DNA of 46,054 nucleotides from Escherichia virus ECH1, in sequence record MN164484.2; one strand, 5' to 3'. Position numbers and translations under genes: made by a program. Shown piece after piece: positions 32,097 through 46,054 of this stretch. The stretch's first letter is position 1. Every line of letters starts with the position of its first letter. Below the pieces are notes generated by a model. The model did no database searches. It saw only the letters and a program-made list of their open reading frames with translations, and was not told the DNA's origin.

Positions 32097-32115
32097 AATA
32101 GCACGAATTGCTAAA
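32097..32115 (+). promoter_or_regulatory. motif copy between primase and tail fibre genes (operator-like)
   Basis: Palindrome centre only about 32 nt from the tail-fibre ATG, which is incompatible with the usual motif-to-start geometry. Confidence 0.35.
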
Positions 32116-33088: not shown

Positions 33089-33158
33089 ATGCACCTCCAT
33101 AAACAATAAAGGCACTATACATAATGTAGAGTGCCAATGTTTATCAAATCGTGCTTTT

Positions 33159-33650
33159 TTACTCTGCTTCTCTCTTTTTCTTATTCTCTTCTTTAATCTT
33201 ACGCCATGATCTGGCAGGCGGCTTTGTTGCTAACTCCTCTTTCTTAACAACTCTAAGCATTTCTCGACGGTCACAACGCAATGTTAAAGGCTTACCATTA
33301 CTATCAAATCGAAGGTCTGGACGAATGAAGCTAGCTCGATAACCCTCGCCTGTACGCTTGTACTTACCGTGTAATTTCTGCGCACCTTTAGCTGAAATCA
33401 TTCCGCGTTTACACCATTCAGAAACTACTGCATGTGTCACATTAGCGGCTTTTGCTAGCTTCGATTTACCACCATAAAAATCAAGTACAATCTCAAGTCT
33501 GGCGCGTAAACTAGCTCTCACCTCATCCTTCAAAGTGTAGTAGCCATAAGGTCGACTACGTTCTTTCTTGTCTTCACCGCGCTGAGTTCCGTTATTACCA
33601 TTTAATGTGCGCTTGTCTACTTCACCAGTTGATGCCGCAATTCTCGTCAT
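33159..33650 (-). CDS. helix-turn-helix DNA-binding protein
   Basis: HTH-like segment SKLAKAANVTHAVVSEWCKRGMIS; basic Lys/Arg-rich C-terminus; divergent from the helicase. Confidence 0.5.
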   Translation of the reverse strand: MTRIAASTGEVDKRTLNGNNGTQRGEDKKERSRPYGYYTLKDEVRASLRARLEIVLDFYGGKSKLAKAANVTHAVVSEWCKRGMISAKGAQKLHGKYKRTGEGYRASFIRPDLRFDSNGKPLTLRCDRREMLRVVKKEELATKPPARSWRKIKEENKKKREAE

Positions 33651-33661
33651 TATCAATCTCC

Positions 33662-41871: not shown

Positions 41872-42236
41872 TAATGTGCATGGCTTTATCTGGATGCTCA
41901 GCAACTGAAGTCCTGACCGGATTGATTGGAAGTAAACCAGATGTCACTGCGCAGGTTGGAGCGGCTAACAATAAAGTCGGCGTTGGTGCTTCCGTTAGTA
42001 GCGACTCCAGCAATTCCAGTGAAGCCACTGTAAGGGATTCTAAGGTTGGGAGCCTGGATAGCTCAAGCGGAAAAAAGACCTCCGACAATTCGATTAAGGC
42101 ATCAACAATCACTGCCGAAAAGATTGAGATTACAAACAATGAATCATCATCACTACCGTGGATTGGTACTGGCGTTATGTTCTGCCTGGTTCTTATTCTT
42201 CTGGCAATTATCTTAAGACGTAAAAAAGCCCCTTAA
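41847..42236 (+). CDS. unimolecular spanin (lipoprotein with C-terminal TM)
   Basis: Lipobox LSGC at the N-terminus, Ser-rich periplasmic region, C-terminal TM helix then RRKKAP. Confidence 0.7.
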   Translation: MLKWIAALVMCMALSGCSATEVLTGLIGSKPDVTAQVGAANNKVGVGASVSSDSSNSSEATVRDSKVGSLDSSSGKKTSDNSIKASTITAEKIEITNNESSSLPWIGTGVMFCLVLILLAIILRRKKAP

Positions 42237-42250
42237 TAGGGGCTATATTT
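42228..42250. terminator. bidirectional terminator (AGCCCC-TTAATA-GGGGCT)
   Basis: Hairpin with T-rich runs on both strands. Confidence 0.55.
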
Positions 42251-42586
42251 TTAGCTAAATAACTCGTCGTCAGTCATGTTTCCTATGTTCATCATTTCCT
42301 TTATGTACTTACTATCATAACCGTTCAGTGCTTCGAAGTTAAACTCAAAAGGCCTCTTCAAACTCCCTCTACTAACAAACTCACCACACTTACCATCAAT
42401 ATATCCTGAGCTTAACATCTTTGCGCAGAACTCCTTTGAAGCTGCACTGCAAAACTCCCGATGTGGCAAACCTGCCGCCTTGCTAAACCTCTCTGAATCT
42501 TTGTGCTTGTATATGAATCGCGCCAAATGCTGGCGCGTAAAATAACTGTAGGACTCGCAAAATCTGTATAAATCAAGAAGAAACAT
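42251..42586 (-). CDS. hypothetical protein (111 aa)
   Basis: ORF with ATG; Cys/Phe-rich. Confidence 0.4.
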   Translation of the reverse strand: MFLLDLYRFCESYSYFTRQHLARFIYKHKDSERFSKAAGLPHREFCSAASKEFCAKMLSSGYIDGKCGEFVSRGSLKRPFEFNFEALNGYDSKYIKEMMNIGNMTDDELFS

Positions 42587-42589
42587 AAA

Positions 42590-44173
42590 TCACCCTATTA
42601 CACGTGGATTAACATAAACACGGTCATCAATCATGCAAACGTAGTTACGTTCTTCAAGCATTGGGATTAAGTGGTCCTTAATCTTCGTCATTACGCCAGC
42701 TTGAGCCTCGAATGGTTTAACCTTTCTAGCAGCCTCATACAATGCACGAAGGCTAACAAAACCTTTACCAGCTTTACCCATTTTTAAAGCCAGGTCGATA
42801 AGTTTGTTCATCTCAGCATTATCCCCAGCATGACCAGCGGCATTAGCAGAAGATAAATATGTTTTGCTTAACTCGTTAAACATTAATACCGCCTCCTGCA
42901 TGGTTTCTAATTCAATCTCACGAGACTTTTTAGGATTGCCACCTTCTTCAGATACCCAATTGCGAACAGTATGAATAACCGAAGCTATACGGATTGCCTG
43001 CTTGTCAAATTTACCAAGTGCGCCTCGTAACATAGTGTGACTGTATTTACCTCCATCACGTAAGTGCGGTTCCATATCCTGGCGAGCACGGTTTAGATAA
43101 CGCATGGCTGAATCACTAATAGTTAGCTTAACATCCACCTCACTCATGATGTTGTGAATAAGTTTAAAGTAAGTCGCCTTAAGCGCTCCATCAATAGGTT
43201 CATAAGTTGAGCGACCTTCATCATCAACAAAAACACGCTCACCTAAGAATGATTTCTCACGAACAAGCAAAAAACGCTCCGATACACCGATACCGCGAGC
43301 ACCAGCATTCATGATTGCGTTGATTGTCTCATCTTGTGCAATTACAGAGATGCAACCCAGCGCAGTAAAAGACATGTTGTTTTCAGCGTTAGCACGAGCA
43401 ATAGAAACATCGCCAGAGTCCCATGCCTTAAGAACCAATTCACTGTTTGTCTTTTTGCTCCCGTCTCCATAAGTCATGCCTAATAATGAGTTTACAGAAG
43501 TTGCTTCATCAGATATTACAGCAAAGTTACCTTGACGGAAGTTAATTCGCGCAAGACCTTCTGGAGTTGTATCAGATACTGGAAAAACAACATCGCATAA
43601 CTTCTCTAACTTCTCCTCAAGATTCTCTTTATCCTCAAATAATCTCGCCATTTCAGAAGGTGATTGCTCCTGCTTCATTTCTTTAGCGAGAGAAGATAGT
43701 TTTGCCATAATCTTTTTTCGTTCACGCTTACGTTCCTCGTTGATTCTGTCTCGTTCAGCAATCATTGGCGCAGTTGCCAGGCTGTTAATTGCTGATTTAC
43801 CAGTTGAAGGAGGTTGGCTTGTAACAACATAAAGCGCGGTTGGCTGAGTTGTTCCGTGATACTCAACGGTAAAACGACCCAGCATTGCAGAAGATACGCA
43901 GCCTAAAAAGTGCATATAGGCAGAAGATGATGGGAACTGTACTGATCGGGCGATGTTGGCTGACAGCTTGCCTACCACATCAAAATCATTCCCGAGGCTT
44001 ATTACAGGATATTTATCATTGCAATTCTCAACCTCTACTGGGTCCTTCCAGAATGACTGAGCATATCGCATACCGTTCGCTTTAATTGCCACACGAAGCG
44101 GGGAGATGCCTTGCTGCTGCGCAATAGTCATAACCTGGTCAACACTCAACTTACTGGATTCGAACTCAAACAT
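42590..44173 (-). CDS. large P-loop NTPase of unknown function (candidate replication-associated ATPase)
   Basis: 527 aa; Walker A-like QPPSTGKS; RBS GGAG; no further recognisable motifs. Confidence 0.4.
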   Translation of the reverse strand: MFEFESSKLSVDQVMTIAQQQGISPLRVAIKANGMRYAQSFWKDPVEVENCNDKYPVISLGNDFDVVGKLSANIARSVQFPSSSAYMHFLGCVSSAMLGRFTVEYHGTTQPTALYVVTSQPPSTGKSAINSLATAPMIAERDRINEERKRERKKIMAKLSSLAKEMKQEQSPSEMARLFEDKENLEEKLEKLCDVVFPVSDTTPEGLARINFRQGNFAVISDEATSVNSLLGMTYGDGSKKTNSELVLKAWDSGDVSIARANAENNMSFTALGCISVIAQDETINAIMNAGARGIGVSERFLLVREKSFLGERVFVDDEGRSTYEPIDGALKATYFKLIHNIMSEVDVKLTISDSAMRYLNRARQDMEPHLRDGGKYSHTMLRGALGKFDKQAIRIASVIHTVRNWVSEEGGNPKKSREIELETMQEAVLMFNELSKTYLSSANAAGHAGDNAEMNKLIDLALKMGKAGKGFVSLRALYEAARKVKPFEAQAGVMTKIKDHLIPMLEERNYVCMIDDRVYVNPRVIG

Positions 44174-44244
44174 CTTAATTCTCCATCTCGTTAATGTGCG
44201 GGTGTTATATAATACCCGCTCAGTATGTCTTTATCTTTTAGTGC

Positions 44245-44598
44245 TTATTTGTATTGCGACTCGAATTTGTAAGTCTCGCAGAGCGTCTTGAAGCCAACTT
44301 CCTCATCTCGGTAAAGCTGCCAGGCATTGCCTTCTTTGTCATAGATGTAACCAGCATTTTGGCCCAGGCCAGCGTGCATGTTTACCTGATATCTCTTTCC
44401 TTCCGCGAACACTTTAGAGACGCCACTCTTATGGTTAACCTTTGTGCAATACAGAGTCTTGGTCTTGATGTATTTGCCGCGCTCTGTAAGGTTCTTCCAT
44501 TTTCCATTAACCTTGATTTGCTCTACACCATCTTTAACGCGAGCCTTGAATAAATCGTTATCGCTTGAAACCCAGTGTTTTGTAATCGTAGTAGTCAT
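44245..44598 (-). CDS. hypothetical protein (117 aa)
   Basis: ATG 44598 preferred over the longer upstream start. Confidence 0.4.
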   Translation of the reverse strand: MTTTITKHWVSSDNDLFKARVKDGVEQIKVNGKWKNLTERGKYIKTKTLYCTKVNHKSGVSKVFAEGKRYQVNMHAGLGQNAGYIYDKEGNAWQLYRDEEVGFKTLCETYKFESQYK

Positions 44599-44599
44599 T

Positions 44600-44761
44600 T
44601 TAAGCCATCTCTTTCGTTTTCCACATAAATTTGTTTGGTACTGATTTGCGAACGATTCGCACAACAATCTTATCTGTCTTTTGCACTAAGCTGTAAATCT
44701 TGCCGTCAAGTGATGAGCGGTATACTGCCTCTTCCATCGCGTCGTAAAAGTTGTCGAACAT
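44600..44761 (-). CDS. hypothetical protein (53 aa)
   Basis: First ORF after the minus-strand motif promoter at 44788-44832. Confidence 0.3.
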   Translation of the reverse strand: MFDNFYDAMEEAVYRSSLDGKIYSLVQKTDKIVVRIVRKSVPNKFMWKTKEMA

Positions 44762-44787
44762 TTCTCATCTCCCGTCTCGATGGAAAG

Positions 44788-44832
44788 ATAATACCGTATC
44801 TCACATAAATGCTTTTAGCAATTCGTGCTATT
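44788..44832 (-). promoter_or_regulatory. conserved promoter-like cassette on the minus strand (AATAGCACGAATTGCTAAA, TATTAT)
   Basis: Leader TCCATCGAGACGGGAGATGAG; ATG at 44761. Confidence 0.5.
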
Positions 44833-44976
44833 GCGCGCCTTTTCTATCGCCTTAAGCATAATCTCATGACTTTCTAGCAAGTCCTCGCGGAACCAGTCGC
44901 CGCAGGGCCAGCCTTTTCCGCTGTATGCGCTAATGACCTCAAGGTCGAAATAATTTATCTCAGATGGTAATAGCAT
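44815..44976 (-). CDS. hypothetical protein (53 aa) ending in NSTNC encoded by the motif
   Basis: Manual translation of the minus strand; the stop codon lies inside the motif. Confidence 0.3.
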   Translation of the reverse strand: MLLPSEINYFDLEVISAYSGKGWPCGDWFREDLLESHEIMLKAIEKARNSTNC

Positions 44977-45218
44977 CACTTCACCTCATCAAAAGTTGCA
45001 ATTCCAGGAATGAACATACCAACCTTCCAGCCAGCAATAGCAATCCAACCAGAATCGTGCTTGTGCGGTCGCTCGGCGCCTTTAATTAACCACTCGTTCG
45101 GGATTGTCTTGCCGTTAATGATTAGAGGCTCAGCGTCGTATACAGAGCCCTTTACGAATGGTGTTAAGGCTTTCTTGTCAGTGCTATTGATAACGTTAGT
45201 GCAGATTACTTTAGTCAT
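44976..45218 (-). CDS. hypothetical protein (80 aa)
   Basis: ORF with ATG, coupled to neighbours. Confidence 0.4.
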   Translation of the reverse strand: MTKVICTNVINSTDKKALTPFVKGSVYDAEPLIINGKTIPNEWLIKGAERPHKHDSGWIAIAGWKVGMFIPGIATFDEVK

Positions 45219-45402
45219 TTACAACCTCGTACTCACCTTTATAAACAGCGACCTCTTCATTCACATTGTTGACAATCACTGCTAAACAAAGAGCACCCAA
45301 ATATTTTACCACTTCGTACTCGCAGCCAAGCGTCAGACCATAGTCCTCACATGAACGTCCACTGCAATCTAAATCTTCGAATTTAACTAACTTAATTTTC
45401 AT
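45211..45402 (-). CDS. hypothetical protein (63 aa)
   Basis: ORF with ATG. Confidence 0.4.
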   Translation of the reverse strand: MKIKLVKFEDLDCSGRSCEDYGLTLGCEYEVVKYLGALCLAVIVNNVNEEVAVYKGEYEVVND

Positions 45403-45412
45403 ATATCAATCC

Positions 45413-45592
45413 TCAAATAAATGGTAGGCATTCGACGCAGCCAAGTCCATCGCAGCACATGAATTCATCTTCTGACTGGAATTGCTTTGCTAAATCAATG
45501 TCTAGCCTTCCGCGCACCACAAGGTCGGTGTAATCTTCATTAAGCCCAATCAGTGCGCACTCGTTACGTAGCTCATCTTTATTCTTTTTCAT
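45413..45592 (-). CDS. hypothetical Cys-rich protein (59 aa)
   Basis: Manual translation; contains CCDGLGCVEC. Confidence 0.3.
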   Translation of the reverse strand: MKKNKDELRNECALIGLNEDYTDLVVRGRLDIDLAKQFQSEDEFMCCDGLGCVECLPFI

Positions 45593-45756
45593 TTATCCTG
45601 GCCTTTTAAATTATGACGCTCTCTCAGAACTTCAACCCATTCTTGCGCGTCATTCTCTCTCATGAAGAAACTTAACTTTGGGTACTTGTGAAACCCTTTA
45701 AGTTCAACTATCCAATGGCCACCTTCGTAACTATAACTAACTTTCTTCTCTGTCAT
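45589..45756 (-). CDS. hypothetical protein (55 aa)
   Basis: First ORF after the long leader from the minus-strand motif promoter at 45969-46014. Confidence 0.3.
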   Translation of the reverse strand: MTEKKVSYSYEGGHWIVELKGFHKYPKLSFFMRENDAQEWVEVLRERHNLKGQDK

Positions 45757-45968
45757 TTTGTTACCTTTTAAGTTTTTCTTGTTATCGACATCTCTTCAAC
45801 GTACTCGCTACAACTCGGGGTTTTACTCCCGGCCCGGCATCCTAACAAAAGGACCCGCTCGGCGCTTTGGTGGGTGAGGTAACGCTTCCTCACATTGCGC
45901 GGTATCATTTACCCTTTTTAGTCCCTTTCGGGAGTGACTCAGAGTCTGCTACCGTGTCGATGAAATGA

Positions 45969-46014
45969 AGTATACGCACATCGATTCAATATGTCTTTAG
46001 CCAAAAGTGCTATT
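45969..46014 (-). promoter_or_regulatory. conserved promoter-like cassette on the minus strand (AATAGCACTTTTGGCTAAA, 21 nt, TATACT)
   Basis: Read as reverse complement; followed by an untranslated leader of about 210 nt. Confidence 0.45.
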
Positions 46015-46054
46015 TATCAGATTACCCAGAACCACTGGTATCATAAAGGCATTA

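Follow-up and report, generated by a model that had tools for sequence, protein, structure and literature searches.

Gene and genome setting

Escherichia virus ECH1 (sequence record MN164484.2) carries on its minus strand a large gene that an earlier reading made from the letters alone (the sequence-only reading) had described as a P-loop protein of unknown function heading an operon of uncharacterised genes. We followed up this gene computationally within the whole stretch of 46,054 bp (the window), to which all positions refer. Its product is an MCM-like AAA+ protein of the DUF3987 family, and we think it likely that this protein serves the phage as a replicative helicase. For short, we call it the helicase and its gene the helicase gene.

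42590..44173, minus strand: DUF3987-family MCM-like AAA+ helicase gene, ortholog of ACG-M12 gp09, T1 ST9 and Rtp rtp67

The open reading frame (ORF) starts with ATG, is preceded by the Shine-Dalgarno sequence GGAG 7 nt 5′ of this codon and encodes 527 amino acids (58.5 kDa). The surrounding DNA is a near-copy of Escherichia phage vB_EcoS_ACG-M12 (NC_019404 / JN986845), which is classified in Drexlerviridae, Braunvirinae, Guelphvirus, with 98.3% identity over 42000-46054, and the window as a whole is the complete genome of a very close relative of that phage. Compared with D861_gp09 of ACG-M12, the helicase gene differs at 25 nucleotides, of which 21 are third codon positions, and 4 amino-acid changes result. 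Because the changes are mostly at third positions and alter just 4 residues, the gene is functional and under purifying selection. Together with the ATG and the Shine-Dalgarno sequence, this shows that the large minus-strand P-loop ORF noticed at 42590-44173 in the sequence-only reading is real.

Family membership and distribution

The protein matched the Pfam family DUF3987 (PF13148) with 140.4 bits (E 1.1e-40), far above the gathering cut-off of 27 bits, and the match joined residues 81-431 to positions 3-350 of the 364 in the profile. It also matched PHROG 2373, annotated as 'DNA helicase', over its full length (E 2e-246). Unknown function is thus no longer a fitting description, and the full-length homology to a known replication family that these searches revealed makes the gene an ordinary one, as the sequence-only reading had said such homology would. 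By score, by motifs and by its C-terminal winged helix, the protein is a member of DUF3987; adjacency to a primase holds in relatives only.

The orthologs in ACG-M12, Rtp (rtp67) and T1 (ST9) are labelled 'DNA helicase' in RefSeq and 'hypothetical' in the original GenBank records, and the RefSeq label rests on homology, not on experiment. By tblastn, the protein was found in 921 phage records, in 899 of them at full length, chiefly from phages of Klebsiella, Escherichia, Salmonella and Shigella. The DUF3987 family as a whole comprises 6,783 clusters at 50% identity (exhaustive profile search, E <= 1e-3). In longer relatives, the DUF3987 region is fused on its N-terminal side to one of three domains, namely the CHC2 zinc ribbon of DnaG, a BT4734-like AEP primase domain or the N-terminal domain of DnaB. 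The ortholog of Salmonella phage Akira (35% identity) belongs to a module of an AP2 DNA-binding protein, the helicase, a primase, a helicase of superfamily 2 (SF2) and exonuclease VIII, and in Aeromonas phage Avpd1 it lies approximately 200 nt upstream of a P4-type primase.

These arrangements agree with published work on the family. Kazlauskas et al. 2016 (PMC4889955) described phage DUF3987 proteins as divergent putative replicative helicases of superfamily 6 (SF6) that are related to MCM, bear a winged helix-turn-helix domain at the C-terminus and are commonly associated with primases, and they placed the essential dns protein of phage N4 in DUF3987. Kazlauskas et al. 2018 reported DUF3987 fused to AEP PrimPols. 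A study of 2025 showed that AgaPH, a PriCT-DUF3987 protein, forms oligomers and acts as a 5′->3′ helicase that depends on ATP or dATP and binds its PrimPol, and mutating its Walker A or Walker B motif abolished the activity (PMC11724360). Because DUF3987 is MCM-like (SF6), is fused or adjacent to primases and includes one proven helicase, the possibility of a replication or primase-associated ATPase, which the sequence-only reading had offered as one option among several, is supported.

Other searches with the protein were less informative. The NCBIfam scan gave no meaningful match, and two further Pfam matches, ADDT (E 0.04; 14 bits, where the cut-off is 26) and CCCAP, were dismissed as noise or coiled-coil bias. 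A helicase of superfamily 4 (the DnaB or RecA type) was ruled out, since Pfam gave no DnaB_C match and the fold is AAA+ and not RecA-type; one relative has just the N-terminal domain of DnaB.

Fold and relation to MCM

We modelled the protein with AlphaFold2 from a 61-sequence alignment, with high confidence (pLDDT 89.0, pTM 0.87). Structure searches with this model returned MCM proteins as the best matches, followed by RavA, BchI, the SCCmec Cch helicase, ComM and BrxL; MCM8/9 were also among the matches, and in Foldseek the best 50 matches were all MCM subunits. No helicase of superfamily 3 (SF3) was present among the best 60 structural matches, and no P4/D5-type Pfam family, whether D5_N, Pox_D5 or one of the PriCT type, matched the protein. 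A comparison with primase-helicase C-terminal domains (P4/D5, SF3 type) had been proposed in the sequence-only reading, and the structure-based check points away from them to an MCM-like AAA+ fold.

Sequence searches gave no hint of this relationship. Pfam contained no MCM match at E <= 0.1, and no MCM chain was found in the PDB (E <= 10) by phmmer with the single protein or by two profiles of the family (A2 and A4, the latter being more diverse). The matches that these PDB searches did return, such as FabG and the Caprin-2 coiled coil, were due to chance, and no solved structure is closely related to the protein. Because the PDB sequence searches found no MCM, the kinship is visible at the level of the fold only. 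The protein is therefore MCM-like, with an AAA+ core closest to the MCM clade, and falls outside the MCM family proper (PF00493), as it has neither a sequence match to that family nor its OB/Zn tier.

Motifs and domains of the protein

Residue conservation was scored in a family alignment of 136 representatives that are 22-37% identical to the query. K126, E223, R260, G296, R300 and K388 are invariant in all 136, and Q280 is present in 135. Along the protein, the following parts were recognised.

43877..44173, minus strand: N-terminal region, residues 1-99, all-helical in the model (residues 1-80 lie outside the Pfam profile)
42944..43876, minus strand: AAA+ ATPase core plus lid, residues 100-410
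43793..43819, minus strand: Walker A / P-loop SQPPSTGKS, residues 119-127 (K126 in 136/136)
43601..43792, minus strand: helical hairpin, residues 128-191, extending the post-Walker A helix (model helices 126-166 and 172-191)
43502..43525, minus strand: Walker B strand FAVISDEA, residues 217-224 (E223 in 136/136)
43364..43411, minus strand: beta-hairpin, residues 255-270, with the invariant R260 (strands 255-258 and 267-270, before strand 273-279 in the model)
43328..43357, minus strand: sensor-1 strand GCISVIAQDE, residues 273-282, with VIAQ at 277-280 (Q280 in 135/136; model strand 273-279)
43271..43288, minus strand: GVSERF, residues 296-301 (G296 and R300 in 136/136), opening strand 301-305
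43001..43030, minus strand: lid motif LRGALGKFDK, residues 382-391 (K388 in 136/136, R383 in 97/136; helices 380-387 and 389-405)
42611..42823, minus strand: C-terminal winged-helix domain, residues 451-521

The Walker A-like QPPSTGKS noticed in the sequence-only reading is present, within the longer SQPPSTGKS. That reading could place no other motif, whereas we found the full AAA+ set, with Walker B FAVISDE (217-223), VIAQ, GVSERF and LRGALGK (382-388). In the model, K126 comes after strand 115-119 and E223 stands at the end of strand 217-221. Q280, R300 and K388 occupy the expected secondary-structure positions, and the roles proposed for them follow from position only: R300 is a candidate arginine finger and LRGALGKFDK a candidate sensor-2 region. 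Likewise, the hairpin at 255-270 is a candidate pre-sensor-1 hairpin that would touch DNA in the central pore, which we propose from the order of secondary-structure elements and not from a superposition. The SRF motif of MCM is the site of its arginine finger, and GVSERF resembles it (no residue-level alignment was made). Beside these invariant positions, the Walker B position D222 varies within the DUF3987 family (D in 51, A in 47 and S in 31 of the 136), and the adjacent S221 is conserved in 127.

Outside the catalytic motifs, the helical N-terminal region stands where true MCMs carry their OB-fold/Zn domain, and Pfam searches with the N-terminal and the C-terminal 100 residues separately gave no match. 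The hairpin at 128-191 spans 64 highly charged, coiled-coil-like residues and is a family-specific insertion that has no MCM counterpart. Its sequence is variable, yet it is present throughout the family, and it was the source of the spurious coiled-coil matches in the PDB sequence search. We also looked for a helix-2 insert; helix 204-214 is apparently unbroken in the DSSP string of the model, and the large insertion comes after helix 1 instead.

gp10 and other replication genes

Two further genes bear on the function of the helicase.

42251..42586, minus strand: gp10, a small winged-helix protein of 111 amino acids, with its ATG 3 nt past the helicase stop codon
32162..33088, minus strand: phage primase gp30, 308 amino acids, without a helicase domain; its sole Pfam match is the T7/P4-type primase zinc ribbon (Zn_Ribbon_Prim)

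The gp10 gene is restricted to T1-like phages and is translationally coupled to the helicase gene, and its product could serve the helicase as a partner or as a DNA-binding factor. At or near its C-terminus, gp10 has an acidic motif, D-x-E-L-F, that is invariant and is followed in many relatives by approximately 20 further residues. This motif recalls the acidic C-terminal tails with which SSB and T7 replication proteins bind their partners.

For gp30, no Toprim or AEP catalytic domain was detected in Pfam at E <= 1e-3, and because only the zinc ribbon was found, its catalytic core is divergent. We presume that gp30 is the primase partner of the helicase. The genome also encodes a RecE-like exonuclease, Erf and SSB, and no DNA polymerase is present among its annotated genes. 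T1 and TLS likewise have no DNA polymerase gene (PMC11447400).

Proposed mechanism and alternatives

Starting from the family membership, the fold, the conservation of the motifs, the gene context and the primase fusions of relatives, we favour with good confidence a ring-shaped AAA+ replicative helicase that has ATP sites between its subunits, translocates on single-stranded DNA (ssDNA) by an R260 pore hairpin and works with gp30, SSB and the host DNA polymerase III. The subunits would assemble as a ring, probably a hexamer, with an ATP site at each subunit interface, to which K126 (Walker A), E223 (Walker B) and Q280 (sensor 1) would contribute in cis, with the arginine finger R300 supplied in trans by the neighbouring subunit. 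ATP hydrolysis would then move the R260 beta-hairpins in the central pore along ssDNA, so that the phage duplex is unwound at the fork. Because T1-like phages encode no DNA polymerase, the helicase would team up with the stand-alone primase gp30, SSB and the host polymerase. The C-terminal winged helix and gp10 are candidates for the recognition of DNA or partners during loading. For ECH1 itself, we infer the oligomeric state, the helicase activity and its polarity, the partners and a role in replication rather than recombination.

Several observations weigh against this proposal. The model is a monomer in which a ring is not visible; it contains no counterpart of the N-terminal OB-fold/Zn DNA-binding tier of MCM, and the variable Walker B aspartate is atypical for AAA+. 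The MCM clade also holds recombination motors (ComM, MCM8/9) and remodellers that are not helicases (RavA, BchI). The helicase gene is located approximately 9.5 kb from the primase gp30, among small uncharacterised ORFs by the lysis cassette, and it is the SF2 helicase gp28 that directly adjoins the primase, with a VRR-NUC nuclease beside it. Because gp28 is next to the primase and the helicase gene is remote, the fork helicase could be gp28 or the host DnaB. Our search of the literature found no experimental test of any DUF3987 protein of a T1-like phage, and a search about DNA synthesis and genes 1 and 2 of T1 returned nothing relevant.

With DnaB or gp28 at the fork, the protein could be a motor of recombination or repair that drives branch migration or fork restart in the manner of ComM or MCM8/9. 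The structural matches include those proteins, the phage encodes a complete recombination set (RecE-like exonuclease, Erf, SSB, VRR-NUC nuclease), and it is gp28 and not the helicase gene that adjoins the primase. We nevertheless regard this as improbable, because the fusions within the family involve primase domains and the DnaB N-terminal domain and not recombination proteins, distant orthologs adjoin primases, and the characterised member pairs with a PrimPol; judging from known families, the pairing of an SF2 helicase with a VRR-NUC nuclease is more typical of a module for repair or fork processing. That the protein is no helicase at all, and acts as an AAA+ remodeller or as a host-takeover or anti-defence ATPase, is very improbable. 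Although the small uncharacterised ORFs among which the gene is found are of a kind often tied to host takeover, and the non-helicases RavA and BchI have the fold of the clade, the invariant arginine on the candidate pore hairpin, the winged helix and the primase fusions of relatives all point to DNA, and conservation in 921 phage records is more in keeping with a core function than with an arms-race gene. PADLOC at E <= 0.1 gave no match for the helicase, gp10 or gp08, and the papers that we checked on Avs sensing and on escape mutants of defence systems contained no link to the protein, so that the suggestion of something new, in the sense of an anti-defence or host-takeover ATPase, found no backing.

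A different question is whether the favoured replicative helicase also starts replication. Extending the mechanism above, it may be a self-loading initiator-helicase that, alone or with gp10, recognises the origin through winged helices, melts it and loads itself, a possibility that we entertain but do not expect to be borne out. The genome annotation contains no O-like or DnaA-like initiator, T1 and TLS have no known origin (PMC11447400), the helicase carries a winged helix at its C-terminus, and the winged-helix gp10 coupled to it is conserved with it in T1, Rtp and Henu8. In phage Akira, the AP2 DNA-binding gene directly precedes the ortholog. Staphylococcal elements provide known examples of self-loading helicases (PMC9371898), and a dual role as initiator and helicase would resemble SaPI Rep proteins and viral SF3 initiators. 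Against this idea, neither iterons nor an AT-rich tract was found near the helicase gene. More tentatively still, the helicase and gp10 could together form the origin-recognition and self-loading module of T1-like phages, doing so without DnaA, DnaC or a system of the lambda-O/P type; an MCM-like ring, possibly moving 5′->3′ as AgaPH does, would then recruit a T7/P4-type primase and the host DNA polymerase III. If true, this would identify at the molecular level the classical 'DNA-negative' early genes of T1.

Comparison with known systems

The helicase has direct orthologs in ACG-M12 gp09 (99.2% protein identity), rtp67 (82%) and T1 ST9; T1 ST9 has 522 amino acids and the same position. In ACG-M12, Rtp and T1, the ortholog occupies the same place in the genome and is followed by a homolog of gp10 (ST10 in T1) and then by a terminator. 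The differences are small, being the 4 amino-acid changes from ACG-M12 and an upstream promoter cassette copy (see below) that is degenerate in the window and intact in Rtp and Henu8.

By description, the helicase resembles AgaPH in its Pfam family, its Walker A and B motifs and a small C-terminal domain; AgaPH forms an oligomer and is functionally paired with a primase, as we propose for the helicase. AgaPH differs in having an N-terminal PriCT and in being encoded directly downstream of an AEP PrimPol, whereas the phage protein has a short helical N-terminus that gave no Pfam match, and the primase presumed to be its partner, which is of the T7/P4 zinc-ribbon type, is encoded 9.5 kb away. 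Compared with archaeal and eukaryotic MCM (PF00493, SF6), the phage protein has no OB-fold/zinc tier and carries the 64-residue hairpin after Walker A. The polarity of MCM is 3′->5′, unlike the 5′->3′ polarity of AgaPH. SCCmec Cch (DUF927) and SaPI Rep belong to other Pfam families and match far more weakly than true MCMs do; SaPI Rep also has an N-terminal origin-binding domain, and none was seen in the phage helicase. Like the helicase, the dns protein of phage N4 is a DUF3987 member, and it is genetically essential for phage replication (PMC4889955); by description, it carries an AEP primase domain C-terminal to its helicase, whereas the T1-like protein has no primase domain.

The gene is an ordinary, conserved core replication gene of a phage family that is large and has been heavily sequenced. 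Its annotation and family assignment were already known, and as a discovery it carries little weight. DUF3987 was assigned to the MCM-like helicases in 2016, and helicase activity was shown for one of its members in 2025. For work on the replication mechanism, the origin and the initiator, T1-like phages are an E. coli system that is tractable. The helicase, gp10 and the stand-alone primase would be the obvious entry point for reconstituting a phage replisome that has an MCM-type and not a DnaB-type helicase. The analysis also amends the picture of the operon and records a promoter cassette that recurs throughout the genome.

Operon, promoter cassette and terminator

The helicase gene is the ninth of ten genes in a minus-strand cluster, gp01-gp10, that runs from 45908 down to 42251. 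Its transcription is framed by the following elements.

44788..44832, minus strand: promoter cassette copy, likely start of the unit gp07-gp08-helicase-gp10
44174..44244, minus strand: 71-nt gap upstream of the helicase gene, with a degenerate cassette copy, a 6-bp palindrome and the GGAG ribosome-binding site (RBS)
42227..42244, minus strand: rho-independent terminator AGCCCCTATTAAGGGGC + T6, bidirectional, common to the convergent lysis cassette

In order, the unit consists of the promoter motif at 44788-44832, gp07, gp08, the helicase gene, gp10 and the terminator. The helicase gene is therefore the third of four genes with only gp10 downstream, and it does not head an operon as the sequence-only reading had it. 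The promoter motif that this reading had placed at 44788-44832 is genuine. Its core, ATAGCAC-N3-TTGNTAA, occurs 21 times in the genome with up to 2 mismatches against 1.8 occurrences expected, and none of 100 shuffled sequences reached 21; the copies lie in intergenic gaps and are oriented with local transcription. A generic sigma-70 scan gave matches no commoner than in shuffled sequence and missed the site at 44788-44832. The motif GGTATTAT alone was not enriched, and the real signal is the longer ATAGCAC-N3-TTGNTAA cassette.

In each cassette, the ATAGCAC box is usually followed by an AAGACA-like -35 element and, approximately 17 nt further on, by a TATAGT/TATTAT-like -10 element. In most copies, this hexamer is followed by a conserved CATCGAAACGAG leader. 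Because the ATAGCAC box is too far upstream for a -35 element, its role may be that of a regulator site or an UP-like element. The box copy at 44815-44831, upstream of gp07, is conserved in Rtp, and another copy lies at 45997-46013 upstream of gp01. The terminator is retained in Rtp with compensatory stem changes, is present in Henu8 and is annotated in T1, and the arrangement of helicase, gp10 and terminator holds in T1, Rtp and Henu8.

Approximately 19 good copies of the cassette lie at 1306+, 2116+, 2747+, 5966+, 13126+, 18846+, 25419-, 25736-, 27584+, 32098+, 33141-, 33663+, 36163+, 37204+, 39122+, 39691+, 40779+, 44815- and 45997-. Short GC hairpins, such as GGGGTATAGTTACCC, often hold the -10 element in their loop, and the leader, of the form CATCGAAACGAG(A/G)GGAG, runs into the RBS. 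The copy at 32098-32114 (+) is situated between two minus-strand genes, those for the tail fibre and the primase, and has a terminator-like hairpin, CCTCCCGAAGGAGG, downstream where other copies have the -10 element and leader.

Within the gap at 44174-44244, the decayed cassette copy reads ATAAGCAC...AAGATAA, and an intact copy is found at the same position in Rtp and Henu8. The palindrome GCGGGT/ACCCGC in this gap encloses TATTATATAAC. The leader RNA of the helicase gene folds better than shuffled sequences (z = -2.84), and its outer stem contains the start codon.

Two observations concern the remainder of the genome. Between the primase and the SF2 helicase, a Cro/YdaS-like regulator is encoded by an intact ORF at 33159-33656 (minus strand) with a TTG start at 33656; the frame annotated for it in RefSeq ACG-M12, at 33144-33650, is interrupted by a stop codon in the window. 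When identity to ACG-M12 was followed position by position, it dropped at approximately 12-18 kb, with 729, 1493 and 1383 mismatches per 2 kb compared with 10-60 per 2 kb elsewhere, and both genomes are equally long. From the sequence comparison, this pattern suggests that the tail-gene region has undergone either indels that compensate one another or a mosaic replacement.

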